Shown here: piece by piece, positions 1,959-63,135 of the stretch
How the letters are laid out: every line of letters starts with the position of its first letter
Position numbering within the stretch: position 1 is the stretch's first letter
Source of the DNA: Enterobacteria phage Kha5h
Direction: 5' to 3' (one strand)
Sequence record: NC_054905.1
Length of the DNA: 64,000 bases
Translations under genes and position numbers: made by a program
The notes under the pieces: model-generated
Database searches by the model: none
The model's input: the letters and a program-made list of their open reading frames with translations, nothing else
Told to the model about the DNA's origin: nothing

Positions 1959-4900
1959 CAGTAAAAGCACCTTCAGTCACTAGTCTCAGAATTTCCAAGT
2001 TATCCGCAAATCAGGTGCAAGTACGCTGGGATGACGTTGGTGCTAATTTCTACTATTTTGTAGAAATCGCTGAGACAAAAACAGACTCGGGGGAAAAACT
2101 CCCGAGTAATCAATACAGATGGATTAATTTAGGATATACAGCAAATAATAGTTTCTTTTTTGATGATGCTGATCCATTAACAACATACATTATTAGAGTA
2201 GCCACAGCTGCGCAAGATTTTGAGCAGTCTGATTGGATTTATACCGAAGAGTTTGAAACTTTTGCTACAAATGCTTATACATTTCAAAACATGATTGAAA
2301 TGCAATTAGCCAATAAATTCATTCAGGAAAAATTTACTCTTAATAATTCTGATTATGTTAATTTTAATAATGACACTATAATGGCTGCATTGATGAATGA
2401 ATCATTTCAATTCAGCCCATCATATGTTGATGTTTCATCAATAAGTAATTTTATTATTGGTGAAAATGAGTATCATGAAATACAGGGCTCTATTCAGCAG
2501 GTATGTAAGGATATTAACCGAGTTTATTTGATGGAATCAGAAGGGATTCTATATCTTTTTGAGCGTTATCAACCTGTAGTTAAAGTATCCAATGATAAAG
2601 GACAAACCTGGAAAGCTGTAAAGCTCTTCAATGACCGCGTAGGATATCCTTTATCTAAGACAGTATATTACCAATCTGCGAACACAACATACGTTCTAGG
2701 ATACGACAAGATTTTCTATGGCCGCAAATCTACTGATGTTAGATGGTCAGCTGACGATGTCAGATTTAGTTCTCAGGATATAACATTTGCTAAACTTGGC
2801 GACCAATTACATTTAGGATTTGATGTAGAAATTTTTGCCACTTACGCGACTTTACCAGCGAATGTATATCGCATTGCAGAAGCTATTACTTGCACCGATG
2901 ATTACATTTACGTTGTCGCCAGAGACAAAGTTAGATACATAAAAACGAGCAATGCACCTATAGATTCTGATCCATTATCTCCAACATATTCGGAAAGGCT
3001 TTTTGAACCTGATACAATGACTATAACCGGAAATCCTAAAGCAGTATGCTATAAAATGGATTCTATCGGTGATAAAGTTTTTGCTCTTATTATTGGTGAA
3101 GTTGAAACATTAAATGCTAATCCTAGAACATCAAAAATAATTGATTCTGCTGATAAAGGAATATATGTTTTAAATCACGACACAAAAACGTGGAAAAGAG
3201 TTTTTGGCAACACTGAAGAAGAAAGAAGACGTATTCAACCGGGGTATGCGAATATGTCAACTGATGGTAAATTAGTTTCTCTATCATCGAGTAATTTTAA
3301 ATTTTTAAGTGATAATGTTGTTAATGACCCTGAAACTGCCGCAAAATATCAGTTAATCGGTGCTGTTAAATATGAATTTCCTCGTGAATGGTTAGCTGAT
3401 AAGCATTATCATATGATGGCATTTATAGCAGATGAAAAGTCTGATTGGGAAACTTTTACTCCTCAGCCGATGAAATACTACGCAGAACCGTTCTTTAACT
3501 GGTCTAAAAAATCTAACACACGTTGTTGGATAAACAACTCTGATAGGGTTGTAGTAGTTTATGCTGATTTAAAATACACCAAGGTTATAGAAAATATTCC
3601 TGAAACATCACCAGATAGATTAGTTCATGAATACTGGGATGATGGCGATTGTACTATAGTAATGCCAAATGTTAAATTCACTGGATTTAAAAAATATGCA
3701 TCTGGGATGCTTTTCTATAAAGCTTCTGGTGAAATAATTTCTTACTATGATTTTAACTATCGTGTTAGAGACACTGTCGAAATTATTTGGAAGCCAACTG
3801 AAGTATTTTTAAAAGCATTTTTACAAAACCAAGAGCATGAAACTCCTTGGTCGCCTGAAGAAGAGCGTGGATTAGCTGACCCTGATTTAAGACCATTGAT
3901 TGGCACAATGATGCCTGATTCTTATTTGTTACAGGATTCTAATTTTGAGGCATTTTGCGAAGCATATATTCAGTATCTTTCTGATGGATATGGAACTCAG
4001 TATAACAATTTACGAAATTTAATTCGTAACAAATATCCACGAGAAGAGCATGCATGGGAATATTTGTGGTCAGAGATATATAAAAGAAACATTTATTTAA
4101 ATGCTGACAAACGTGATGCTGTTACAAGATTTTTTGAATCACGTAGCTATGATTTTTATTCTACTAAAGGAATTGAAGCATCATACAAATTTCTTTTTAA
4201 AGTTCTTTATAATGAAGAGGTTGAAATTGAAATTGAATCTGGGGCTGGTACTGAATATGATATAATCGTTCAATCTGATTCTTTGACTGAAGACTTAGTA
4301 GGACAAACGATTTATACAGCCACAGGAAGATGTAATGTTACTTATATAGAAAGAAGCTATTCTAATGGTAAATTGCAATGGACCGTAACTATTCATAATC
4401 TTTTGGGAAGATTGATTGCCGGTCAAGAAGTTAAAGCAGAAAGACTTCCTAGTTTTGAAGGCGAAATTATTCGTGGAGTTAAAGGGAAGGATTTGCTTCA
4501 AAATAATATAGACTATATTAATAGAAGTCGGTCATATTATGTAATGAAAATTAAATCCAATTTGCCTTCTTCCCGCTGGAAATCTGACGTTATTCGTTTT
4601 GTTCATCCAGTAGGATTTGGATTTATAGCAATTACCCTTTTAACAATGTTTATTAATGTTGGTTTAACTCTTAAACACACAGAGACTATAATTAATAAAT
4701 ACAAAAACTATAAATGGGATTCTGGATTGCCTACTGAATATGCTGATAGAGTAGCTAAATTAACTCCAACCGGTGAAATTGAGCATGATTCAGTAACAGG
4801 CGAAGCAATTTATGAGCCTGGCCCAATGGCTGGCGTAGAATATCCTCTTCCTGATGACTATAATGCTGAAAATAACAATTCAATATTTCAAGGTCAATTG

Positions 4901-5053
4901 CCGTCTGAACGACGCAAATTAATGAGTCCTTTATTTGATGCATCTGGAACAACATTTGCGCAATTTAGGGATTTAGTTAATAAACGTCTAAAAGATAATA
5001 TAGGAAATCCAAGAGACCCTGAAAATCCAACACAGGTTAAAATAGATGAATGA
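1955..5053 (+). CDS. 7: Baseplate wedge initiator gp7
   Basis: 1032 aa ORF, same length as T4 gp7; position between gp6 and gp8; start overlaps gp6 stop. Confidence 0.9.
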   Translation: MTVKAPSVTSLRISKLSANQVQVRWDDVGANFYYFVEIAETKTDSGEKLPSNQYRWINLGYTANNSFFFDDADPLTTYIIRVATAAQDFEQSDWIYTEEFETFATNAYTFQNMIEMQLANKFIQEKFTLNNSDYVNFNNDTIMAALMNESFQFSPSYVDVSSISNFIIGENEYHEIQGSIQQVCKDINRVYLMESEGILYLFERYQPVVKVSNDKGQTWKAVKLFNDRVGYPLSKTVYYQSANTTYVLGYDKIFYGRKSTDVRWSADDVRFSSQDITFAKLGDQLHLGFDVEIFATYATLPANVYRIAEAITCTDDYIYVVARDKVRYIKTSNAPIDSDPLSPTYSERLFEPDTMTITGNPKAVCYKMDSIGDKVFALIIGEVETLNANPRTSKIIDSADKGIYVLNHDTKTWKRVFGNTEEERRRIQPGYANMSTDGKLVSLSSSNFKFLSDNVVNDPETAAKYQLIGAVKYEFPREWLADKHYHMMAFIADEKSDWETFTPQPMKYYAEPFFNWSKKSNTRCWINNSDRVVVVYADLKYTKVIENIPETSPDRLVHEYWDDGDCTIVMPNVKFTGFKKYASGMLFYKASGEIISYYDFNYRVRDTVEIIWKPTEVFLKAFLQNQEHETPWSPEEERGLADPDLRPLIGTMMPDSYLLQDSNFEAFCEAYIQYLSDGYGTQYNNLRNLIRNKYPREEHAWEYLWSEIYKRNIYLNADKRDAVTRFFESRSYDFYSTKGIEASYKFLFKVLYNEEVEIEIESGAGTEYDIIVQSDSLTEDLVGQTIYTATGRCNVTYIERSYSNGKLQWTVTIHNLLGRLIAGQEVKAERLPSFEGEIIRGVKGKDLLQNNIDYINRSRSYYVMKIKSNLPSSRWKSDVIRFVHPVGFGFIAITLLTMFINVGLTLKHTETIINKYKNYKWDSGLPTEYADRVAKLTPTGEIEHDSVTGEAIYEPGPMAGVEYPLPDDYNAENNNSIFQGQLPSERRKLMSPLFDASGTTFAQFRDLVNKRLKDNIGNPRDPENPTQVKIDE

Positions 5054-6050
5054 TTCAAGTGTTATCTATCGTGCGATAGTTACTTCAAAATTTAGAACAG
5101 AAAAAATGTTGAATTTTTATAATTCAATTGGAAGTGGTCCGGATAAAAACACTATCTTTATCACATTTGGAAGATCAGAACCGTGGTCATCAAATGAAAA
5201 TGAGGTGGGCTTTGCTCCACCTTATCCAACTGATTCTGTATTAGGCGTAACTGACATGTGGACGCATATGATGGGAACCGTAAAGGTTCTTCCATCTATG
5301 CTTGATGCAGTTATTCCTCGTAGAGATTGGGGAGATACTAGATATCCGGATCCATATACATTTAGAATTAACGATATTGTAGTGTGTAACTCAGCTCCTT
5401 ACAATGCTACTGAATCAGGCGCAGGCTGGTTAGTATATCGCTGTTTAGATGTTCCTGACACAGGAATGTGTTCAATTGAGTCTTTAACTAATAAGGATGA
5501 ATGCCTTAAGTTAGGTGGAAAATGGACTCCTTCTGTTAGGTCAATGACTCCTCCTGAAGGTCGAGGAGACGCGGAAGGAACAATCGAACCAGGAGACGGA
5601 TATGTTTGGGAATATCTTTTTGAGATTCCGCCTGATGTATCTATAAATAGATGCACGAATGAATATATCGTGGTTCCTTGGCCTGAGGAATTAAAAGAAG
5701 ACCCGGCTAGATGGGGGTATGAAGATAATCTCACCTGGCAACAAGATGATTTTGGATTAATTTACCGTGTTAAGGCAAATACTATCCGTTTTAAAGCATA
5801 TTTAGATTCAGTTTATTTTCCAGAAGCTGCATTGCCGGGAAATAAAGGATTTAGACAAATATCAATAATCACGAATCCTCTTGAAGCTAAAGCTCATCCA
5901 AATGACCCAAACGTTAAAGCTGAAAAGGATTATTATGATCCGGAAGATTTAATGAGGCATTCGGGCGAAATGATTTATATGGAAAATAGGCCACCTATTA
6001 TCATGGCAATGGATCAAACAGAAGAAATCAATATTCTGTTTACATTTTAA
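5046..6050 (+). CDS. 8: Baseplate wedge protein gp8
   Basis: 334 aa ORF, T4 gp8 length and synteny; 8-nt overlap with gp7. Confidence 0.9.
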   Translation: MNDSSVIYRAIVTSKFRTEKMLNFYNSIGSGPDKNTIFITFGRSEPWSSNENEVGFAPPYPTDSVLGVTDMWTHMMGTVKVLPSMLDAVIPRRDWGDTRYPDPYTFRINDIVVCNSAPYNATESGAGWLVYRCLDVPDTGMCSIESLTNKDECLKLGGKWTPSVRSMTPPEGRGDAEGTIEPGDGYVWEYLFEIPPDVSINRCTNEYIVVPWPEELKEDPARWGYEDNLTWQQDDFGLIYRVKANTIRFKAYLDSVYFPEAALPGNKGFRQISIITNPLEAKAHPNDPNVKAEKDYYDPEDLMRHSGEMIYMENRPPIIMAMDQTEEINILFTF

Positions 6051-6055
6051 CTTAA

Positions 6056-6082
6056 GGGAGCCCATGGGCTCCCTTTTTCTTT
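6056..6082 (+). terminator. Rho-independent terminator after gene 8
   Basis: Perfect palindrome GGGAGCCCATGGGCTCCC followed by TTTTTCTTT. Confidence 0.8.
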
Positions 6083-6089
6083 ATAAATA
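6082..6089 (+). promoter_or_regulatory. Late promoter TATAAATA for gene 9
   Basis: Exact TATAAATA about 25 nt upstream of the gene 9 ATG. Confidence 0.7.
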
Positions 6090-6113
6090 CTATAAACTCA
6101 TAAGGAAACCGCT

Positions 6114-6980
6114 ATGTTCATTCAAGAACCAAAGAAATTGATTGATACCGGCGAAATTGGTAACGCTTCTACTGGTGATATCTTATTCGACGGTGGTAAT
6201 AAAATTAATAGTGATTTTAACGCAATTTATAATGCGTTTGGCGATCAACGTAAAATGGCAGTAGCAAATGGAACTGGAGCAGATGGCCAAATTATCCATG
6301 CTACCGGATATTATCAAAAACACTCTATTGCAGAGTACGCAACTCCAGTAAAAGTTGGCACTAGGCATGATATTGATACCTCTACTGTAGGTGTTAAAGT
6401 TATCATTGAAAGAGGCGAACTTGGCGACTGCGTTGAATTTATTAACTCAAATGGATCTATATCAGTTACTAATCCTTTAACAATTCAAGCCATTGATTCA
6501 ATTAAAGGTGTTTCGGGTAATTTAGTAGTAACTAGCCCATATAGTAAAGTTACTTTACGCTGTATTTCATCTGATAATTCTACGTCGGTTTGGAATTATT
6601 CTATTGAAAGTATGTTTGGACAAAAGGAATCACCAGCTGAAGGTACATGGAATATTTCTACATCTGGATCAGTTGATATTCCACTATTTCATCGCACTGA
6701 ATACAATATGGCTAAATTACTAGTTACATGCCAATCGGTAGATGGAAGAAAAATTAAAACAGCAGAAATAAATATTCTTGTGGATACTGTCAATTCAGAG
6801 GTAATTTCTTCTGAATATGCTGTCATGCGAGTTGGGAATGAAACCGAAGAAGACGAAATCGCTAATATTGCATTTAGTATTAAAGAAAATTACGTAACGG
6901 CGACTATAAGTTCTTCAACTGTCGGTATGAGAGCAGCAGTTAAAGTTATCGCTACGCAGAAAATCGGGGTGGCTCAATAA
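6114..6980 (+). CDS. 9: Baseplate wedge / long tail fibre socket protein gp9
   Basis: 288 aa, synteny; preceded by terminator hairpin and TATAAATA late promoter. Confidence 0.9.
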   Translation: MFIQEPKKLIDTGEIGNASTGDILFDGGNKINSDFNAIYNAFGDQRKMAVANGTGADGQIIHATGYYQKHSIAEYATPVKVGTRHDIDTSTVGVKVIIERGELGDCVEFINSNGSISVTNPLTIQAIDSIKGVSGNLVVTSPYSKVTLRCISSDNSTSVWNYSIESMFGQKESPAEGTWNISTSGSVDIPLFHRTEYNMAKLLVTCQSVDGRKIKTAEINILVDTVNSEVISSEYAVMRVGNETEEDEIANIAFSIKENYVTATISSSTVGMRAAVKVIATQKIGVAQ

Positions 6981-8788
6981 TGAAACAAAATATTAATATC
7001 GGTAATGTTGTAGATGATGGTACCGGTGACTACCTGCGTAAAGGTGGTATAAAAATAAATGAAAACTTTGATGAGCTTTATTATGAACTCGGTGATGGTG
7101 ATGTTCCATATTCAGCCGGTGCCTGGAAAACTTATAATGCTTCATCAGGACAAACATTAACAGCAGAATGGGGAAAATCGTACGCTATTAATACATCTTC
7201 TGGAAGAGTGACTATAAATCTTCCAAAGGGCACAGTTAATGATTACAACAAGGTAATTAGAGCTAGAGACGTATTTGCTACATGGAACGTCAACCCAGTT
7301 ACACTAGTAGCTGCTTCCGGCGATACGATTAAAGGGTCTGCAGTACCAGTTGAAATTAATGTTCAATTCAGCGATTTAGAACTAGTGTATTGTGCCCCAG
7401 GACGTTGGGAATATGTCAAAAATAAACAAATTGACAAAATTACCAGTTCAGACATTAGTAATGTAGCTCGTAAAGAATTTTTAGTTGAAGTTCAAGGACA
7501 AACGGACTTTTTAGATGTTTTCCGTGGAACTAGTTATAATGTAAATAACATCAGAGTAAAACATCGTGGTAACGAATTATATTACGGCGATGTGTTTAGC
7601 GAAAACAGTGATTTTGGCTCTCCAGGCGAAAATGAAGGAGAACTGGTTCCTCTTGATGGATTTAATATTCGATTAAGACAGCCTTGTAATATTGGTGACA
7701 CTGTTCAAATTGAAACATTTATGGATGGTGTATCGCAGTGGAGAAGTTCATATACAAGACGTCAAATTAGATTGTTAGATTCAAAATTAACGTCAAAAAC
7801 TTCTCTAGAAGGAAGTATTTACGTTACTGATTTATCAACAATGAAATCAATTCCATTTTCTGCTTTTGGATTAATTCCAGGAGAACCTATTAATCCTAAC
7901 TCTCTTGAGGTTCGTTTTAATGGGATTTTGCAGGAATTGGCTGGCACAGTTGGAATGCCATTATTTCATTGTGTTGGTGCCGATTCAGACGATGAAGTAG
8001 AATGCTCTGTTTTAGGTGGAACTTGGGAACAATCTCATACCGATTATTCAGTTGAAACTGATGAAAACGGCATACCGGAAATTTTACATTTCGATAGAGT
8101 ATTTGAGCATGGTGACATTATCAATATCACCTGGTTTAATAATGATTTGGGTACATTATTAACAAAAGATGAGATTATTGATGAAACTGATAATCTTTAT
8201 GTATCGCAAGGACCAGGGGTAGATATTTCCGGTGATGTAAATTTAACAGACTTCGATAAAATTGGTTGGCCAAATGTAGAAGCAGTTCAATCTTATCAAC
8301 GCGAATTTAATGCTGTTTCAAATATCTTTGATACGATTTATCCTATTGGAACTATATATGAAAACGCTGTTAATCCAAACAACCCTGTTACATATATGGG
8401 ATTCGGCTCATGGAAATTATTTGGGCAAGGAAAAGTTTTAGTTGGATGGAATGAAGATATTTCGGATCCGAATTTTGCTCTAAATAACAATGATTTAGAT
8501 TCTGGCGGAAATCCTTCGCATACTGCAGGTGGAACAGGTGGTTCTACTTCTGTTACATTGGAAAATGCTAATCTTCCTGCAACTGAAACAGATGAAGAAG
8601 TTCTAATAGTTGATGAAAATGGATCAGTCATTGTTGGTGGGTGTCAATACGATCCAGATGAATCCGGTCCAATCTACACTAAATACCGTGAAGCTAAAGC
8701 ATCTACTAACTCTACTCACACTCCGCCAACATCAATAACTAACATTCAACCATATATTACAGTTTATCGTTGGATAAGGATTGCATAA
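6980..8788 (+). CDS. 10: Baseplate wedge protein gp10
   Basis: 602 aa, T4 gp10 length; start overlaps gp9 stop. Confidence 0.9.
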
Positions 8789-40924: not shown

Positions 40925-40927
40925 CAA

Positions 40928-40959
40928 TGGGGACCTTTTGGTCCCCATATTTTTATTTA
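40928..40959. terminator. Bidirectional terminator between gene 54 and the alt.-3-like ORF
   Basis: TGGGGACC TTTT GGTCCCCA followed by TATTTTTATTT. Confidence 0.8.
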
Positions 40960-41243
40960 CGGAATGAAATAAAAGCAGCAACTGAAGCAACTAAACTGTC
41001 TTCAATATAAACTTCAATTTTTACCGGAGCTTCTGACTCAAATTTACCTGTTACTACACCTTGGAAAATGCTTTCAGTCTGTTCTGGCTTTGAAAAATTT
41101 TCAGAAGGAAAAATTCCGAACTTTTTATCTGTTCCAAAAATTTTGATAAATTCATCATAAACTGCTTCATTAAAAGCGTTATCAGCAGGAATAACGCCTT
41201 CAACTACAAGTTCTTGACCTAAAAAGCGTAAAGAAGATTTCAT
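40953..41243 (-). CDS. Hypothetical protein (alt.-3-like)
   Basis: 96 aa ORF preceded on the - strand by the 54-bp early promoter cassette with GAGGA RBS. Confidence 0.65.
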   Translation of the reverse strand: MKSSLRFLGQELVVEGVIPADNAFNEAVYDEFIKIFGTDKKFGIFPSENFSKPEQTESIFQGVVTGKFESEAPVKIEVYIEDSLVASVAAFISFRK

Positions 41244-41250
41244 TTTGTGT

Positions 41251-41304
41251 TCCTCATGTTATGTCAGTAAGATTACTATAACACAACACGAGGGACTTGT
41301 AAAC
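41251..41304 (-). promoter_or_regulatory. Early promoter plus leader cassette, copy 1
   Basis: Reverse strand GTTTAC, 17-18 nt, TATAGT, then GAGGA RBS; 54-bp element repeated at 56551-56604. Confidence 0.65.
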
Positions 41305-43361
41305 TACATCTTGAACTTTTTAGACATTCCGTTGATGTTAACCAAAGAAGCCAAGATTTGAGAAACTTCGTTTTCCTCTTCTTTTGATTCTTCTACAAGG
41401 AATTGATTAAACCCAGCCATTGGACGAACTTCACCAGTTTCCATTAGATGATCGCCATCATATACCGATTCTTCTAATTGTTCAGAAGGAGGAACGATTG
41501 TGCCTTCGATTAGATACTTGTTATAAGCAGTTTCTTTCATCATGTACGTGCTTACTTTATTAATCTTCAACAAAATTCCACGCGGTAGAATAACTTCAGC
41601 TTCTGATGGAAATCCTGATAAATGACCTGGAACGATAACTTTGATTCGTTCAGCCCCTTTAATTACCATACCTACGCTAGTTTCAGCATCTTCATTAGCA
41701 TATGTAGAATGACTACCCATATGCATCAAATCTTCTGCATCAACGGAACCTTCTCCTTCACCAGAAAATACTGCGCCGGAATCATCTAGAGCCATATAGT
41801 TTTTACCATGCTCACCGAAGATATTTGGTTTAAGCGATGTGGATACGAAGTTCTTGAAATAGAACATTTTATTTTCAATATTATGACGTAAAGTTTTAAA
41901 GGTAACTTCTTGTCCGCGATAAAGCGTAGTTCCTGGAGGAAGAACTGAACCTTTAGCAAATGCAGAATCCAACGTCTCGATGTGCTTAATAGCTCGTTCC
42001 ATATATTCTTCACGGGTAGAATCTGGTTTACCCAAAAGGAACGAGTTCATTTCAACATATGAATCTGCACAATAATCTTCAATTACATCAGATTCAGCTT
42101 GAGTTAATCCTTTTGGAGTTACTTCAGTGCTTGCGTATTCATATGCCTGGGCAGCAGATTCATTAATCAATTTATAAATGCCATTCATTACAAATTGAAT
42201 AATAGCTGTCTTTTCATCTGGCGTAGCTTTAGAACCTTTAACTAAATCATTGATAATTTTCTTAATAACATCAAAGCTATTAGAAATATTAATATCAGCA
42301 AGATCGCTTAAAATTTTATCAGTTTTATAATCAAAGAATTCTTTATTCTTTAAATATTCTTGAGAACCTTGATATGTTATATCGCTCTGCAACTTGATAG
42401 ATGGATCACGTAAACGTGCATGGGCCAATGCAATATGATTTCGGAAGCTTTCTAGTTCATAATCGTTAGATTTAAAACTAGAAGCACTTCTCATACCACC
42501 GATAGCTCCTTTGCCGAAGTTGGAACCAATCTGAATAACGCCAGAGTTCATTGGTCCTTCTGCTTTATATACCGGAACTTTAGATTCAAACTCTTGATAT
42601 TTCTTAGCGGCGAAGCTATCGCCCTGGAGTGAGGCATCGACAGTAGAATATTGAGCTTGCGCTGCTAATCGACGACTAATTTTAGTTTTCTGAATAACAG
42701 CTTGATCCGTGCGCTTATCATTTTCTAAAGCAATAGAAGCAGCAACAGCAACAGCTTTAGGAACAGCATTACCTGTTTTAACATCTACATAAACATCACC
42801 AACCTTTGATTCAACTTTTGTGAATAACTCAGTTGAAATAGGAGGTACACCTGGAATGTCTTCTAAATTGGCATTTTTACGGTAAACCATAATATATGCG
42901 TACTTTTTATCATAGTCCCAGATTTCCTTTAAAAGAACATATCGACCTGCTCCTTTAGTACGTACTAAACGGTCAGCAATAACTTGCATTTGACGAGCTG
43001 CGCCATTTGTTTTACTCTTTAGTACGCGGAATAGGCATGCGTCGATTTTATACTGCTTCATTGTTTGAAGAGCAGTATCAAAAACAGCATTAATGACGCC
43101 AATTGGATTTCCACCCAAGTTTCTAAGCTTAACCAGCGATAATTTCTCGTTGACACCTATCATTACGATATGCATCATTTTATCGCCTGGCTTAACGTTT
43201 TTATTCGTATCACCACCAGAGGTGTATGTACAAAATCTAAATCCAGGAAGCACGCTTTCTTCGCCGGCTTGAATAGCAAAAATTTGTGGTATTTTATGCT
43301 TAGGATTTAAGTTAACAACCGGCGCCGAAGCGCCGTCAAATAATTCTGTAATAAGTTCCAT
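41304..43361 (-). CDS. Alt-family ADP-ribosyltransferase paralog
   Basis: 685 aa; N-terminus MELITELFD closely similar to the adjacent Alt ORF; C-terminal ART motifs YRGQ, FVSTSL, EAEVILPRG. Confidence 0.8.
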   Translation of the reverse strand: MELITELFDGASAPVVNLNPKHKIPQIFAIQAGEESVLPGFRFCTYTSGGDTNKNVKPGDKMMHIVMIGVNEKLSLVKLRNLGGNPIGVINAVFDTALQTMKQYKIDACLFRVLKSKTNGAARQMQVIADRLVRTKGAGRYVLLKEIWDYDKKYAYIMVYRKNANLEDIPGVPPISTELFTKVESKVGDVYVDVKTGNAVPKAVAVAASIALENDKRTDQAVIQKTKISRRLAAQAQYSTVDASLQGDSFAAKKYQEFESKVPVYKAEGPMNSGVIQIGSNFGKGAIGGMRSASSFKSNDYELESFRNHIALAHARLRDPSIKLQSDITYQGSQEYLKNKEFFDYKTDKILSDLADINISNSFDVIKKIINDLVKGSKATPDEKTAIIQFVMNGIYKLINESAAQAYEYASTEVTPKGLTQAESDVIEDYCADSYVEMNSFLLGKPDSTREEYMERAIKHIETLDSAFAKGSVLPPGTTLYRGQEVTFKTLRHNIENKMFYFKNFVSTSLKPNIFGEHGKNYMALDDSGAVFSGEGEGSVDAEDLMHMGSHSTYANEDAETSVGMVIKGAERIKVIVPGHLSGFPSEAEVILPRGILLKINKVSTYMMKETAYNKYLIEGTIVPPSEQLEESVYDGDHLMETGEVRPMAGFNQFLVEESKEEENEVSQILASLVNINGMSKKFKM

Positions 43362-43364
43362 GAT

Positions 43365-45461
43365 TTATCCTTGAACGAACTTGTAAGGCATGTTTGTAAT
43401 ATCTATGCAAGACGCAATAATTCCAAGAGATGATTCGACTTTCTGTTTAACATTTGATGAAACAAATGATGCAAAATCAACTCTGTCTTCTATTTCAATA
43501 TCACCTGTCATTGCAACTACTTCGCCGGTTTCCATTAAACGGTCTCCGTCATAGATTACCGATTCGGTGAGCTCTTCCGTGGTCATAACTTCAGCTTGAA
43601 TGAGTTTTGTATTATTAGATGTTGTTCCGTCATTATTAGAAGCATCAGTTATTTTATTAACTTTGACCATCAATCCACGCGGTAGAATAACTTCAGCTTC
43701 TGTTGCTATTCCGAGACTTCCTGGATATACAACATTAACTTTATGAGCTCCATCAATTGCCCATCCTATTTGAACTTTAACGTATTCAGGATTTTCTTTA
43801 TACGCTCTTATTTCGTTTGGATTAATAGTTATTCCTTCTTCATTTTTATCAACTGTTAATTCATTGCGAGCTTCTGGTTCTAAAAGACCAATACCAGCAT
43901 GTGTAATTCCAAAACGTCCAAAAATGATAGGAGTTAAAGAAGTAGATACAAAATTTCTGAAGTAGAACACTTTATTTTTAACTAACGCTTCATATATAGG
44001 AGCAGTCATACTTTGAGCACGATAAACTGTAATGCCTTCTGGTATACGGTCACCATTTTCAAAAGCTGAATCTAAGTTATTTATAGCAGATTCAATTTCT
44101 TTTTCACTCATTACATCATATCGTTCTGGATTGTAACGACCTAAAAGAAGATTATTGATGTCAGTATATCCTGAACCGCAATATTCTCTAATGCCACGCT
44201 TTTGTGATGGAGTATATTTAGAACCATCGCGGGCAATAGTAATATCAATCATTGGACCAGCACCAATTCCAGAAAAACTGTAAATCATTCGTTTGAGGAA
44301 TTTAGTTTTTGCTGCGTTCCAGAAATTTTTAGTTATTTCTTCCCAGACTTCATCTGGTTGTCCTTTACGATTTTTATTATGATTAGCAAGCCATTTATCT
44401 TTATAATCTTCAAAGAATTGATTTACAGCTGCTGCGTATTTCTCTAAACATTTTATTGAAGTAGTTGGTTCATTTTTAATTGCATTAAAAATTACTTCTT
44501 TAATTTTTTCTGAAACTTCACCGACTTGACTCATTGGAAAGAATTTATAATCATAGTGAAGTTCATCTGCCGTTCCTTCAGCAATAATTTTTGCTGCCTT
44601 TGTTTTAGAAGCTAATGAATTAATTCCAATTTTCATTTCTTCTGCTTCGGGAATTAAAGGTGCAGTAGCTGGTTTATTAAAATTAGCTGCTGTAGATTCA
44701 TACTTCTGGAATAATTCACTTTCAAATCTAGAAGATTCCAATGACTGACTTTGTGCAATTGCTCTACGTGAAATTTTAACTTTAACGATTACAGCTTGGT
44801 CAGAACGTTTATCATTTTCTTGCGCAATAGATGCTGCAATTGCCTCATTTTTAGTTACTTGAGCTCCAGTATCTTTATTGATATAAACATCGCCGACTTT
44901 CGATTCAACTTTAGTAAAGAGCTCGGTACTAATTTCCGGAACTCCTGGAATGTCTTCTAGTGATACATTTTTGCGATGTATAAGAATATATGCATACTTT
45001 TTATCATAATCCCAGAGTTCCTTAAGAAGGACGTATCTGCCACCTGAACGACTACGGATAAGTCTATCAGCAATAACTTGAATTTGTCGAGCTTGACCAG
45101 CGGTTTTAGACTTAAGAATACGGAGCATACAGGCATCAATTTTATACTGACGCATTGTTTGCATTGCAACAGTAAAAACTGAATTGATATAATTAATTGG
45201 GCTTGGACCAAGACCTTTTAATTTAGCAATTGAACCTTTAGCAGTTAATGTAAAAGGAACAATATGCATCATTTTATCGCCCATCTTTAAATCGCGATTA
45301 GTATCACCTCCAGATGTATAGGTACATAAACGAAAGCCTGGCTGTTCAATTGCATCATCAACGTGAACTGAAAAAATTTGCGGTATTTTCTTCTTTGGAT
45401 TTAAGTTTGTAATCGGAAGAGTAGTATCTTCGTCAAATAATTCTGTAATAAGTTCCATCAT
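43365..45461 (-). CDS. alt: Alt ADP-ribosyltransferase (head-packaged), start possibly at second Met
   Basis: 698 aa; ART R-S-E motifs YRAQ, FVSTSL, EAEVILPRG; both an upstream hairpin and TATAAATA on the - strand. Confidence 0.85.
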   Translation of the reverse strand: MMELITELFDEDTTLPITNLNPKKKIPQIFSVHVDDAIEQPGFRLCTYTSGGDTNRDLKMGDKMMHIVPFTLTAKGSIAKLKGLGPSPINYINSVFTVAMQTMRQYKIDACMLRILKSKTAGQARQIQVIADRLIRSRSGGRYVLLKELWDYDKKYAYILIHRKNVSLEDIPGVPEISTELFTKVESKVGDVYINKDTGAQVTKNEAIAASIAQENDKRSDQAVIVKVKISRRAIAQSQSLESSRFESELFQKYESTAANFNKPATAPLIPEAEEMKIGINSLASKTKAAKIIAEGTADELHYDYKFFPMSQVGEVSEKIKEVIFNAIKNEPTTSIKCLEKYAAAVNQFFEDYKDKWLANHNKNRKGQPDEVWEEITKNFWNAAKTKFLKRMIYSFSGIGAGPMIDITIARDGSKYTPSQKRGIREYCGSGYTDINNLLLGRYNPERYDVMSEKEIESAINNLDSAFENGDRIPEGITVYRAQSMTAPIYEALVKNKVFYFRNFVSTSLTPIIFGRFGITHAGIGLLEPEARNELTVDKNEEGITINPNEIRAYKENPEYVKVQIGWAIDGAHKVNVVYPGSLGIATEAEVILPRGLMVKVNKITDASNNDGTTSNNTKLIQAEVMTTEELTESVIYDGDRLMETGEVVAMTGDIEIEDRVDFASFVSSNVKQKVESSLGIIASCIDITNMPYKFVQG

Positions 45462-45483
45462 AGCCTCTCTAGTGTTTATTCTA

Positions 45484-45511
45484 TTTATAAAATTAAAGGC
45501 CCGAAGGCCTT
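45484..45511 (-). promoter_or_regulatory. Late promoter TATAAATA and upstream hairpin before alt
   Basis: Reverse strand TATAAATA about 25 nt upstream of the alt ATG, preceded by AGGCC TTCG GGCCT hairpin. Confidence 0.55.
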
Positions 45512-45699
45512 TAGTAATCTAGTGGTAAGAGAGTACGATATATTTCAAACTTTGGTCCTTTTTCATAGGCATCAAATGTTTCTGTAAATTTATTATAAGC
45601 GTATGCATCTACAAATTCGAGAATGACTTGTGATACAGAAGTAGAAACATCTCCACCTTCTTTTTGAGCAATGACAATTGTTTCTAAGTAAGCTTTCAT
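45511..45699 (-). CDS. Hypothetical small protein
   Basis: 62 aa ORF between ligase and alt; start overlaps ligase stop. Confidence 0.55.
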   Translation of the reverse strand: MKAYLETIVIAQKEGGDVSTSVSQVILEFVDAYAYNKFTETFDAYEKGPKFEIYRTLLPLDY

Positions 45700-47159
45700 A
45701 GACCAGTTACCTCATGAAAATCACCAAATACATCCTCGAATGTATTAGCTTTAGTTTTATCTTCACGTAAACGAATCGCAATCGGAAGAAATAATTTAAC
45801 GTAATCAGTGCGGCCATCAGATTTTAACCAACCGTTGCATTCGCACTCTAGAATTTTTCCAATATAATAATTTTGGTTTTCCATAATGCGAGTACGGTCA
45901 AGCTCATGTGATTTTACGCCGGCTTTATCTTTTAAGCCTGAACCAGCATTTACTTTAATTTTTCCACATTCTGATTCAAGAATAAATCCACCCGCTTTAG
46001 TAGGGTCTTTACGGTGAGGATAAATTCCTACAATTTTTAAATCAACATCAATTACTTCTTTAAATTTATAAAGATTTTTTGAACGAGCATTTTCCCATAA
46101 TCCATCGATATTTTTGAGAATAATACCTTCAAGACCTTGGTCAATATACTTTTTGTAAATTACCTTAGCTTCATCTAGGTTATTTACTACTTGGTTTTCA
46201 ATTAAAATTACTTTATCATAGCCTGATGTCATTTGTTCTAGTTTAGAAAAACGTACATCATATTTTAAACGAAACGCTGGAAGACCATATATTTCTACTA
46301 ATGGAACATAGTCCCAGACCTGAAACTTCATGCATTGAGCTTCTTTTTCAGAAATGGTTCCTTTTAAGGATTTATTGGCGATTCCATTAGAAGTAGTACG
46401 AGATTCCGCTACTTCGGCGAATTCTTTAGCTTTACTAATTTTAGGATAAGCATCAAAAAGAAAATCTAGGCCTTCTGGTTCCTTTTTAACTTGCTCATGG
46501 TATACCAATTCGCCATCAATTAACACACCTTCTGGATGAATCTGGCGAGCTTCTGCAGTCATTTTGATTAACTCTTCCTTGAGAAGATCTAATCCTAGAT
46601 ATTCATTACCAGCTCGTGATAAAAGACGAACATCATCTAATTCATCACCTCTGACTTCAGCAAAGCACCGAGCTCCATCAGCTTTTAATTGGGCAAAGGC
46701 TGGAAATTTGATATTCTTATTAATGCCTTTTTCATCATAAGAACTTGCCAGCATTTGAGGTTGTTCAGGAATTAAACCTGGCCAAACTTTGTTTGCAATA
46801 GATACTGATGCACCACATTCAAGGTCTCGCATCATCACCCGACGCAAAACTTCAACATCATCTTTTTTACCGTCAGCAATATATCCAGTTAATTCCTCAA
46901 TTGCCGCATTTCCTGTCAATTTCCGAGTAGCTAACGTGAATTCAATGAAGTCAAGCATATCGGTAAGAGTCAACATTCCAAAACTCTGGGTAGCAATACC
47001 CGGTTTAGGCCATTTCTTGATATAATACTGTAACCCACGAGAATAAGTCAGACGATATACTCGTTTAAGCAATTCATTATCTTTATTCTTTTCAAGAATT
47101 GCTTGCTTCTGCTTAGTTGAACCAATAGATGCTATTTCGTTCAGAATTTTAAGAATCAT
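45696..47159 (-). CDS. 30: ATP-dependent DNA ligase gp30
   Basis: 487 aa, T4 ligase length; adenylation motif KADGARC. Confidence 0.92.
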   Translation of the reverse strand: MILKILNEIASIGSTKQKQAILEKNKDNELLKRVYRLTYSRGLQYYIKKWPKPGIATQSFGMLTLTDMLDFIEFTLATRKLTGNAAIEELTGYIADGKKDDVEVLRRVMMRDLECGASVSIANKVWPGLIPEQPQMLASSYDEKGINKNIKFPAFAQLKADGARCFAEVRGDELDDVRLLSRAGNEYLGLDLLKEELIKMTAEARQIHPEGVLIDGELVYHEQVKKEPEGLDFLFDAYPKISKAKEFAEVAESRTTSNGIANKSLKGTISEKEAQCMKFQVWDYVPLVEIYGLPAFRLKYDVRFSKLEQMTSGYDKVILIENQVVNNLDEAKVIYKKYIDQGLEGIILKNIDGLWENARSKNLYKFKEVIDVDLKIVGIYPHRKDPTKAGGFILESECGKIKVNAGSGLKDKAGVKSHELDRTRIMENQNYYIGKILECECNGWLKSDGRTDYVKLFLPIAIRLREDKTKANTFEDVFGDFHEVTGL

Positions 47160-58222: not shown

Positions 58223-59401
58223 TTAAAAGTATTTTTTAAAACTCATCATAACTTTATCATCAACATCATTATCAATCTGTGCAACAAGATAAGATGACAG
58301 TTCTACTTCTTGTGGCGCGGATTGAACATTATCAGAATTAAGATATTCACGAATCCAAGGATATGGATGTTTAACCGGAGCATCGGTAATTGGGCATGGA
58401 AGACCACACTGTTTCATACGAGATACAGTTAAGTAATCAATAAAGCTCCACATGCTATTTGTATTTAATCCAGGAACATCGCCATCTTTAAATAAATGAA
58501 CTGCCCAATCTTTTTCTTGGCGGTTAACTTCCATGAAAATATCAACTGCTTCTTGTTCACACTCTTGAGCAATTTTAACCCATTGATCACCATCAGTACC
58601 AGATTGAAGTTGACGAATAATATATTGGGTGCCTTTAAGGTGAAGCTGTTCATCGCGTGCAATGAACTTCATAATCTTGGCATTACCTTCCATGATTTCC
58701 ATGTTCTTATGGAAGTTAAAGGTACATGCGAAAGATACATAAAAACGAATAGCTTCCAATGCGTTGATTACATGCAAACAGAGGTAAAGAGATTTCATTA
58801 GCTCACGCTTCCAATATGTCTCATGCTCAATAGCATCTTCAATAACGTCTTCGTCTGCATTAATTTCTTTTTGGTATTCGATATCAGCTTTAGCGTTTTC
58901 CCAATAACGAGTTTTAATCAGAACATCATCATAATAACGTCCAATGGATTCAGCACGTTTCATAATAGCTTCATCTAATACAATTTCATCAAATACCTTC
59001 GATGGATCAGTATAAAGATTTCGCATGATATGAGTATATGAACGACTGTGAATAGTTTCACTAAAAGTCCATGTAGCAACCCATGTATCAAGGCTTGGGT
59101 CTGAAATTAATGACATAAGTACAGCAGATGGCGCGCGACCCTGAATGCTATCTAAAAGTGATTGATACTTCAAGTTGTTAGTAAAAATATTTTGCTGATA
59201 CTGAGGAAGCTTATTAAACTGTGCAGCATCCATCATCAAGTTTACTTCTTCAGGACGCCAGAAAAATGATAATTGCTTTTCGGTTAAATCTTCAAAAACT
59301 TTATGACGTTGAATATCATAACGCGCAATACCAAGACCTGAACCAAAAAACATAGGTTCTTTTAAAACATCAACTGGATTTGTATTAAAAACTGTGCTCA
59401 T
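58223..59401 (-). CDS. nrdB: Ribonucleotide reductase small subunit, uninterrupted
   Basis: 392 aa continuous ORF; di-iron ligand motifs (E..H) present. Confidence 0.9.
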   Translation of the reverse strand: MSTVFNTNPVDVLKEPMFFGSGLGIARYDIQRHKVFEDLTEKQLSFFWRPEEVNLMMDAAQFNKLPQYQQNIFTNNLKYQSLLDSIQGRAPSAVLMSLISDPSLDTWVATWTFSETIHSRSYTHIMRNLYTDPSKVFDEIVLDEAIMKRAESIGRYYDDVLIKTRYWENAKADIEYQKEINADEDVIEDAIEHETYWKRELMKSLYLCLHVINALEAIRFYVSFACTFNFHKNMEIMEGNAKIMKFIARDEQLHLKGTQYIIRQLQSGTDGDQWVKIAQECEQEAVDIFMEVNRQEKDWAVHLFKDGDVPGLNTNSMWSFIDYLTVSRMKQCGLPCPITDAPVKHPYPWIREYLNSDNVQSAPQEVELSSYLVAQIDNDVDDKVMMSFKKYF

Positions 59402-62274: not shown

Positions 62275-63135
62275 TTACACCGCCATCTTTCCTTTCAATA
62301 CACCGTGGGACTGATAATCTTTGAGAACGAAATCCCGTGCTGTCATATATTCAGTTAACCAATACATTTGAGTTTCAGTATCGCATTGACTGAATCCATT
62401 AGGCCAATTAATACTGAGTTTGCATAGATCCATAGGAGTTCTATTTAATATCTCTTTGCATTGCTCAATATGGTTAGAATAAATGTGTGTATTACCACCC
62501 GAGAATACCAAATCGCCCGGAACTAGTTCACACATGTCAGCAACAATATGCAAAAGAGCAGCATAACTCGCGATGTTAAATGGAAGACCGAGGAAAACAT
62601 CTACCGAACGTTGATACCATTGGAGGTCAAGGTATCCGTTACGCACATTAAACTGATAGAACATATGACAAGGAGGTAATGCCATCTGCTTGAGTTCAGC
62701 TGGATTCCATGCCGACACAATTTGACGCCTATCGTTGGGAAATGTTTTAATACGATTAACAACTTCTACAATTTGATCTACACCACCAAAATCACGCCAC
62801 TGTTTTCCGTAAATTGGACCAAGTTCACCGCTATGATAACCTAAGTCTTTGGCCTGGTTTTCGTAGTTTTCATCCCAAATTGTTTTTCCTGCAATTAAAG
62901 ATCCATGAGTACGTTGACGTAAATCATTTACGTTAGTACTTCCTGATAAGAACCACAATAACTCAGAAATACATGCATTCCAGGCGAGCTTCTTAGTCGT
63001 TACTGCAGGAAAACCTTTAGTTAAATCCCAGCGTAATTTAGTACCGAACAAAGCAATTGTTCCTGTGCCTGTTCGGTCATCAGTTTCATAGCCATTTTCA
63101 AAAATGTCTTTAATTAAATCTTGGTATTGTTTCAT
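62275..63135 (-). CDS. td: Thymidylate synthase, uninterrupted
   Basis: 286 aa continuous ORF; catalytic LPPCH motif and DLQWYQRSVD region. Confidence 0.92.
   Translation of the reverse strand: MKQYQDLIKDIFENGYETDDRTGTGTIALFGTKLRWDLTKGFPAVTTKKLAWNACISELLWFLSGSTNVNDLRQRTHGSLIAGKTIWDENYENQAKDLGYHSGELGPIYGKQWRDFGGVDQIVEVVNRIKTFPNDRRQIVSAWNPAELKQMALPPCHMFYQFNVRNGYLDLQWYQRSVDVFLGLPFNIASYAALLHIVADMCELVPGDLVFSGGNTHIYSNHIEQCKEILNRTPMDLCKLSINWPNGFSQCDTETQMYWLTEYMTARDFVLKDYQSHGVLKGKMAV

Follow-up and report, generated by a model that had tools for sequence, protein, structure and literature searches.

The closest described system is the ADP-ribosyltransferase Alt of phage T4. T4 Alt is a component of the prohead core, is present at about 40 copies per head, and is injected with the DNA (PMC9026906, PMC5694885). 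Mass spectrometry has shown that the protein is trimmed by gp21 after ITE-6 and LTE-619, with the removal of 63 C-terminal residues (PMC5694885). Its targets are the alpha subunit of RNA polymerase and others, and arginine ADP-ribosylation has been demonstrated only for T4 Alt (PMC5512222, PMC11404850). Paralogs of alt have been reported earlier, including a full-length duplicate in Aeromonas phage 44RR (Nolan et al. 2006, PMC1524935), and the T4 record annotates alt.-1 and alt.-2 (NP_049810, NP_049809) as 'an old duplication of the first part of gene alt'. Here we describe the corresponding locus of Enterobacteria phage Kha5h (NC_054905.1), using a window of 64,000 nucleotides (nt) to which all coordinates refer. 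Between the baseplate gene 54 and the ligase gene 30, this phage carries two long adjacent open reading frames (ORFs), and it is very probable that these are two functional, late, arginine-specific Alt mono-ADP-ribosyltransferase genes, whose products are packaged in the head and injected, and whose targets are partly different.

The two ORFs lie on the minus strand exactly where the preliminary description had placed them. According to the ORF listing, the upstream ORF, alt, occupies 43365..45461 (-) and encodes 698 amino acids (aa) from its first ATG (start MMELITELFDED), while the downstream ORF, the alt paralog "alt.-2", occupies 41304..43361 (-) and encodes 685 aa (start MELITELFDGAS). 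A second ATG in alt, at 45458, yields a protein of 697 aa. This second ATG is the start used in the public annotations of RB18, RB14, and T4, and the alt ribosome-binding site (RBS), GAGAGG, lies 5 nt from it versus only 2 nt from the first; given this spacing and these annotations, the 697-aa start is favored. The ATGATG sequence is also present in T4. The earlier claim that both proteins start with MELITELFD is therefore correct for the 685-aa and 697-aa forms, but the 698-aa ORF opens MMELITELFD, with an extra leading methionine. The start codon of the 685-aa gene is positioned 3 nt past the alt stop and has its own RBS, AAGGA.

By BLASTP the two proteins are 41% identical over about 719 columns (E = 1e-162), an E-value that excludes chance as the source of the similarity. 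How this identity is distributed was determined from a three-way alignment of both proteins with T4 Alt, using the numbering of the 685-aa protein. The N-module (residues 1-238) is 68% identical between the paralogs (160/237), the central region (239-415) is 22% identical, and the ADP-ribosyltransferase (ART) domain (416-625) is 35% identical, with its two conserved halves at 44% and 36% and an inserted loop (517-558) at only 9%; the C-terminal tails are 42% identical. Thus, as the preliminary description had stated, the proteins are highly similar over roughly their first 230 residues and then diverge, with 68% identity over residues 1-238 giving way to 22% and 35% beyond. Its further proposal, that a common N-terminal module was kept while the catalytic region diversified, describes the overall pattern well but has to be adjusted in one respect: divergence is greatest in the central helical region and in the one loop within the ART domain, rather than in the catalytic core.

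In window coordinates, all on the minus strand, the 685-aa protein is divided into the N-module (1-238; 42648-43361), the central helical region (239-415; 42117-42647), the ART domain (416-625; 41487-42116), which contains R482, S507-T-S509, and E587-A-E589, and the C-terminal tail (626-685; 41304-41486). In the 697-aa numbering, the product of alt is similarly composed of the N-module (1-239; 44742-45458), a central helical cassette (240-415; 44214-44741), the ART domain (416-632; 43563-44213), which contains R480, S505-T-S507, and E587-A-E589, and a C-terminal propeptide (633-697; 43368-43562).

Both proteins are members of the Alt family, showing all of the family features that could be tested. 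PF03496 (ADPrib_exo_Tox) matches the 685-aa protein at 72.6 bits (E = 3.6e-20) and the 698-aa protein at 127.5 bits (E = 5.4e-37), each well above the gathering cutoff of 23.4, and the Alt-like family phrog_802 spans residues 1-685 (E = 3.6e-256) and 1-696 (E = 1.1e-272), respectively. None of the four locus proteins has a family in NCBIfam. The R-S-E signature that had been noticed in both C-terminal halves is present at residues that align with those of T4 Alt: YR482GQ, FVS507-T-S509-L, and E587-A-E589-VILPRG in the 685-aa protein, and YR481AQ, FVS506-T-S508-L, and E588-A-E590-VILPRG in the 698-aa numbering, with R478, S503-T-S505, and E574-M-E576 as the T4 Alt counterparts. The Arg, Ser-Thr-Ser, and Glu-x-Glu residues are invariant in 6/6 Alt paralogs from three phages (window, T4, and MX01). 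The activity of T4 Alt is abolished in a mutant published as E577A (PMC11404850), which we take to affect one glutamate of the ExE motif (residues E574/E576 by the numbering of NC_000866).

An AlphaFold model was made for the 685-aa protein; the ART fold of the 697-aa protein rests on Pfam and the alignment. The model has a mean predicted local distance difference test score (pLDDT) of 73.5 and is composed of an alpha/beta N-module, a long helical region, and an ART domain. Within the modelled ART core most blocks have a pLDDT of about 80-90, with dips, and the loop at 517-555 falls below 50. A Foldseek search of the PDB with this model finds the Vis toxin, Certhrax, C3 exoenzyme, CDTa, VIP2, and iota toxin, all with a probability of 1.00, at E-values between 7e-8 and 2e-4 and with target TM-scores of about 0.6; when the PDB is instead queried with the sequence of the 685-aa protein, no solved relative appears at E <= 0.01. 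The predicted structure indicates that the 685-aa protein has an intact ART fold of the C3/VIP2/Vis type. The preliminary description had singled out this protein as the one that might lack an intact catalytic glutamate or an ART fold; the glutamate is kept, and the ART fold is seen in the model.

A megablast comparison of 41000-45800 with a phage collection returned 542 records; in 360 of these a single match spans 80% or more of the query, in most cases with 95-99% identity. All of the records are T4-like (Tequatrovirus), from phages of Escherichia, Shigella, Yersinia, and relatives, and therefore the window belongs to an ordinary member of this genus. Most of the matching records annotate two "Alt-like RNA polymerase ADP-ribosyltransferase" genes. 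In the RB18 and RB14 records the upstream gene is alt and the downstream gene is alt.-2, and the order 54, alt.-3, alt.-2, alt, alt.1, 30 is shared by these two phages and the window; the name "alt.-2" is also used in the RB14, RB32, and RB51 records. The tandem pair is thus real, was correctly interpreted, and is already known, being annotated in hundreds of records. It had been argued that the idea of two specialized enzymes would fail if the ORFs proved to be ordinary annotated genes of a known phage with no target difference; the first half of this describes the situation, since they are annotated in a known phage group.

The product of alt is the positional ortholog of T4 Alt (gpAlt, NP_049811; 682 aa), with the same flanking genes, late promoter, and terminator, the same R/STS/ExE residues, and the same gp21 motifs ITE and LTE. 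The N-modules of the two proteins are 100% identical and the tails 94%, but identity falls to 33% in the central cassette (about aa 240-415) and to 65% in the ART domain. Because near-identical flanks surround a diverged interior, the alt gene of the window is best described as an alternative allele with a replaced internal cassette. The 697-aa protein is 99.7% identical to its counterpart in phage JLBYU24, and the cassette allele of the window is found in about 325 phage records; the band of 60-80% protein identity, which includes T4, holds 212 records. There are zero synonymous differences in the cassette (44214-44741, aa 240-415) among the window, RB18, and RB14, versus a synonymous divergence (dS) of 0.10-0.16 among the same phages in the N-module beside it, and this difference suggests that the cassette spread recently by recombination. 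Two sharply different central/catalytic alleles between identical flanks suggest an ongoing exchange of target-recognition parts.

The downstream gene has a different history in T4. T4 alt.-1/alt.-2 occupy the same position as the 685-aa gene, beside alt.-3, and the translation of T4 alt.-1 is almost the same as the beginning of the 685-aa protein. In a nucleotide alignment T4 retains the first ~348 nt of the 685-aa gene at 95% identity, with a 1-nt deletion in an A-run that produces a frameshift, and a 9-bp microhomology (CTAAAAAGT / CTAAAGAGT) links this remnant with the final ~16 nt of the gene. The segment lost from T4 corresponds to 41324..43013 (-) in the window, about 1.7 kb, and at least 80% of its length is present in 400 phage records at 90-99% nt identity. 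In addition, two PHROG profiles fit the 685-aa protein better than they fit Alt, phrog_23015 at residues 1-56 and phrog_15247 at residues 62-117; because the lengths of these profiles, 61 and 67, are the lengths in aa of the T4 ORFs, the two families are equated with T4 alt.-1 and alt.-2. The 400 records that keep the segment, together with the PHROG matches, argue that the intact second gene is the normal state of the genus, and that T4 alt.-1/alt.-2 are evidently a deletion remnant of the 685-aa gene. T4, to judge from these comparisons, lost its second enzyme through the frameshift and the 1.7-kb deletion, so that the gene which is dead in T4 is intact and under purifying selection in the window.

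Evidence for the age of the pair comes from another genus. The Dhakavirus Escherichia phage MX01 (NC_031934.1) has three tandem Alt-like genes at 1998-8258, encoding 707, 681, and 694 aa, which occupy the same slot with spacings of 3 nt. Of these three, the copy beside alt.-3 (ORF194) is the nearest to the 685-aa protein (51% identity), and the copy beside alt.1 (ORF196) is the nearest to the 697-aa protein (67% identity). Positional orthologs of both copies thus exist outside Tequatrovirus, which makes the duplication an old one. The extra middle copy of MX01, at 35-37% identity, is absent from the window. Two adjacent matches are also seen in Escherichia phage MN04. WG01-type phages have three matching places by tblastn, and Acinetobacter phages have annotated 'split' Alt genes. 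Within Tequatrovirus, the pairwise ratio of nonsynonymous to synonymous divergence (dN/dS) is 0.03-0.06 for both genes and is low in every domain (three comparisons: window, RB18, and RB14). With ratios of about 0.04, both genes are under strong purifying selection, which indicates that they encode functional proteins.

The features associated with the packaging of T4 Alt are also present in both proteins. In the alignment the gp21 motifs are kept, as ITE4-6 and LEE629-631 in the 685-aa protein and as ITE and LTE in the 697-aa protein. The glutamate of the cleavage site and the sequence YDGDxLMETGE that comes next are invariant in 6/6 Alt proteins (window, T4, and MX01). This sequence lies just past the gp21 site L-x-E|SV, and it is invariant although in T4 Alt it falls within the propeptide that is removed; a loading signal or an inhibitor of the enzyme are candidate roles for it.

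A mechanism consistent with these observations can be proposed. A single late promoter at 45482-45489 would transcribe both genes, and alt and the 685-aa gene would probably be translated together, given that the stop of one and the start of the other are only 3 nt apart. Each protein would then enter the scaffolding core of the prohead, possibly through the 238-residue N-module, the terminal propeptides, or both, and the prohead protease gp21 would trim both ends of both proteins. The mature enzymes would remain in the head, be injected with the DNA, and, with NAD+, ADP-ribosylate arginines of host proteins. The catalytic chemistry would be common to the two, both of which carry the E-x-E motif characteristic of arginine-specific enzymes. 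Because the central helical region and the ART loop have diverged strongly, the host targets are probably partly different, and these two parts are likely to be the sites of target choice.

The promoter and terminator signals fit this scheme. A T4-type late promoter, TATAAATA, is located at 45482..45489 (-), 21 nt upstream of the alt start region and at the identical position in T4; the motif has 18 matches in the window versus 9.5 expected by chance. A terminator-like hairpin, AAAGGCCTTCGGGCCTTT, followed by a T-run, is positioned at 45494..45513 (-), downstream of alt.1; the same element is present in T4, and it closes the upstream early/middle transcription unit. No terminator is seen between alt and the 685-aa gene, and the late alt transcript likely ends at a bidirectional terminator hairpin at 40927..40948, between gene 54 (+) and alt.-3 (-). 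The alt coding region contains another exact TATAAATA at 44078-44085 (-), upstream of the 685-aa gene by about 700 nt, which may be a chance occurrence or an internal late promoter.

Several points weigh against two packaged enzymes with partly different targets. A literature search found no virion proteomics or biochemistry specific to the second copy, the difference in targets is drawn purely from sequence divergence, and the literature ties capsid targeting only to short N-terminal sequences (PMC5694885). Furthermore, T4 alt is itself non-essential (PMC9026906). T4 also grows well without the second copy, and thus any benefit of the second enzyme must be conditional. This last observation, that T4 does well in the laboratory despite the loss of the second copy, together with the identical catalytic residues and the E-x-E arginine-specificity motif in both proteins, is what would be expected if the copies were redundant or additive, acting on the same targets (Arg265 in the alpha subunit of RNA polymerase and other Alt substrates) as an extra dose or a backup. 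Such redundancy is nevertheless unlikely. The two lineages have stayed distinct across genera, and identities of 22% in the central region and 9% in the ART loop, with each gene still under strong purifying selection, would be an unusual pattern for interchangeable copies. Another explanation, that the 685-aa protein is left out of the head and acts late in the producing cell in the manner of ModA/ModB, with its N-module serving some other role, draws on the fact that direct evidence for packaging was not found. We regard it as very improbable, because the protein has in common with Alt the N-module (68%), both gp21 motifs, and the invariant motif of the C-terminal propeptide, is predicted to be co-transcribed with alt from the late promoter, and has no detectable similarity to ModA or ModB.

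A remaining explanation is that the N-module does more than serve in packaging: with an enzymatic or ligand-binding activity in this module, GNAT-like or otherwise, each protein would be bifunctional; the chance of this appears to be very slight. Modelled alone, the N-module reaches a pLDDT of 84 and a predicted template modelling score (pTM) of 0.82. PF26846, an N-terminal domain family, is assigned to close homologs in precomputed annotations. When the N-module and central region were scanned at E <= 10 with a Pfam library that does not contain PF26846, only noise came up (YpM, CesA, and Noc2), and a word-index homolog search with the N-module alone returned 6 proteins, all of them Alt fragments.

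With HMMER, a search of 1.84 billion representative proteins places the N-module in 74 clusters, nearly all of them of Alt-like length (600-710 aa). When ten atypical clusters were scanned, four had PF03496 above the gathering score and three more were ART-like by eye; diverged ART-like motifs were recognized in this way in the proteins designated P0188, P0186, and P0192. The atypical N-module proteins also include one truncated protein with a sub-threshold PF03496 match, P0190 (541 aa), which has the N-module and no recognizable C-terminal domain, P0196 and P0197, which look like spurious low-complexity matches, and P0198, a 46-aa fragment. P0188 (1142 aa) is far longer than any Alt of an isolated phage, and both it and P0190 are rare metagenomic proteins in which the N-module is joined to unusual C-terminal regions; when the two were compared with isolated phages by tblastn, only the N-module of Alt genes was matched. 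An arrangement of the polymorphic-toxin style, in which the N-module would be coupled to many different cargoes, was considered and is unsupported by sequence, as the module is nearly always found with an ART domain.

A fold search of viral models gives matches, with query TM-scores of about 0.5 and 12-15% identity, to parts of large uncharacterized proteins of unrelated phages (Erwinia, Dickeya, Shigella MK-13, Vibrio, and Agrobacterium Atu_ph07), some of which are annotated with Zeta toxin, ParB/Srx, or deaminase. This resemblance is a lead rather than a finding. It is doubtful that the N-module represents an alpha/beta domain of its own kind, with a distant likeness to GNAT and a general function in head loading or delivery. 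If it did, the Alt arrays would form one branch of a broader system in which injected effectors are interchangeable, and YDGDxLMETGE could be a common signal for loading or auto-inhibition.

The surroundings of the pair are those of a Tequatrovirus genome. The order at the locus is gp29, gp48, and gp54 (+), a 96-aa ORF (-), the two long ORFs, a 62-aa ORF, and a DNA ligase of 487 aa (gene 30, 45696-47159). The 62-aa ORF, alt.1 (45511..45699, -; phrog_1976), is a conserved hypothetical gene between gene 30 and alt. The 96-aa ORF, alt.-3 (40953..41243, -; phrog_1739), has no assigned function and is not an ADP-ribosyltransferase; T4 alt.-3 mutants with a C-terminal extension escape the CmdTAC defence system (PMC11618068). 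Directly past the stop codon of the 685-aa gene is an early-type (sigma-70-like) promoter at 41275..41303 (-), which consists of (G)TTTACA, a spacer of 17 nt, and TATAGT with an upstream TG; it is conserved in T4 and is predicted to drive alt.-3. An Rfam scan of the whole 64-kb window detected no RNA family. The presumed nrdB (392 aa, 58223-59401) and td (286 aa, 62275-63135), both on the minus strand and assigned from their size and position, show no interruption. In T4, td and nrdB contain group I introns, and it appears that this phage, unlike T4, is without them in the two presumed genes.

Compared with other known systems, the Alt proteins have the catalytic fold and motifs in common with the R-S-E toxins C3, VIP2, iota, CDTa, and Vis (PF03496), at identities of 13-20%. 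The C3-type toxins are secreted bacterial proteins with other delivery domains, whereas the Alt proteins have the 238-residue N-module, the helical region, and the terminal propeptides. T4 ModA and ModB are also phage ARTs of the R-S-E clade (PMC5512222), but at 200 and 207 aa they are a third of the size of Alt, lack the N-module, and are early and unpackaged, and BLASTP detects no similarity between them and the C-terminal half of the 685-aa protein (E = 0.14 and 73). The logic of a head-associated N-terminal domain joined to an injected effector is the same as that of MuF-fused ARTs, polymorphic toxins, and polyvalent proteins (Iyer et al. 2017, 2022); a MuF (Phage_Mu_F) domain was not found in either protein, and a scan of the N-module at E <= 10 did not reveal one either. 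Two paralogous Alt-like proteins of a related phage, at 43% identity, are described in a 2026 paper that proposes an expanded target range (PMC13600099); the idea of different targets, also raised in the preliminary description, is thus already put forward there.

Among its closest relatives, RB14, RB18, RB32, RB51, and about 400 other Tequatrovirus records have the same 685-aa gene in the same context at 95-99.7% protein identity, and the window represents one more member of the two-copy Tequatrovirus, with no substantive difference. As a discovery the pair carries little weight, and its interest is modest, residing in a second Alt that is uncharacterized and that the model phage T4 is without. 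It is T4 that is the exception: about 400 of some 540 Tequatrovirus records carry an intact, selectively maintained second Alt that has never been characterized. Since T4 is without this enzyme, conclusions about the ADP-ribosylation of the host that are drawn from T4 alone may under-describe its relatives.

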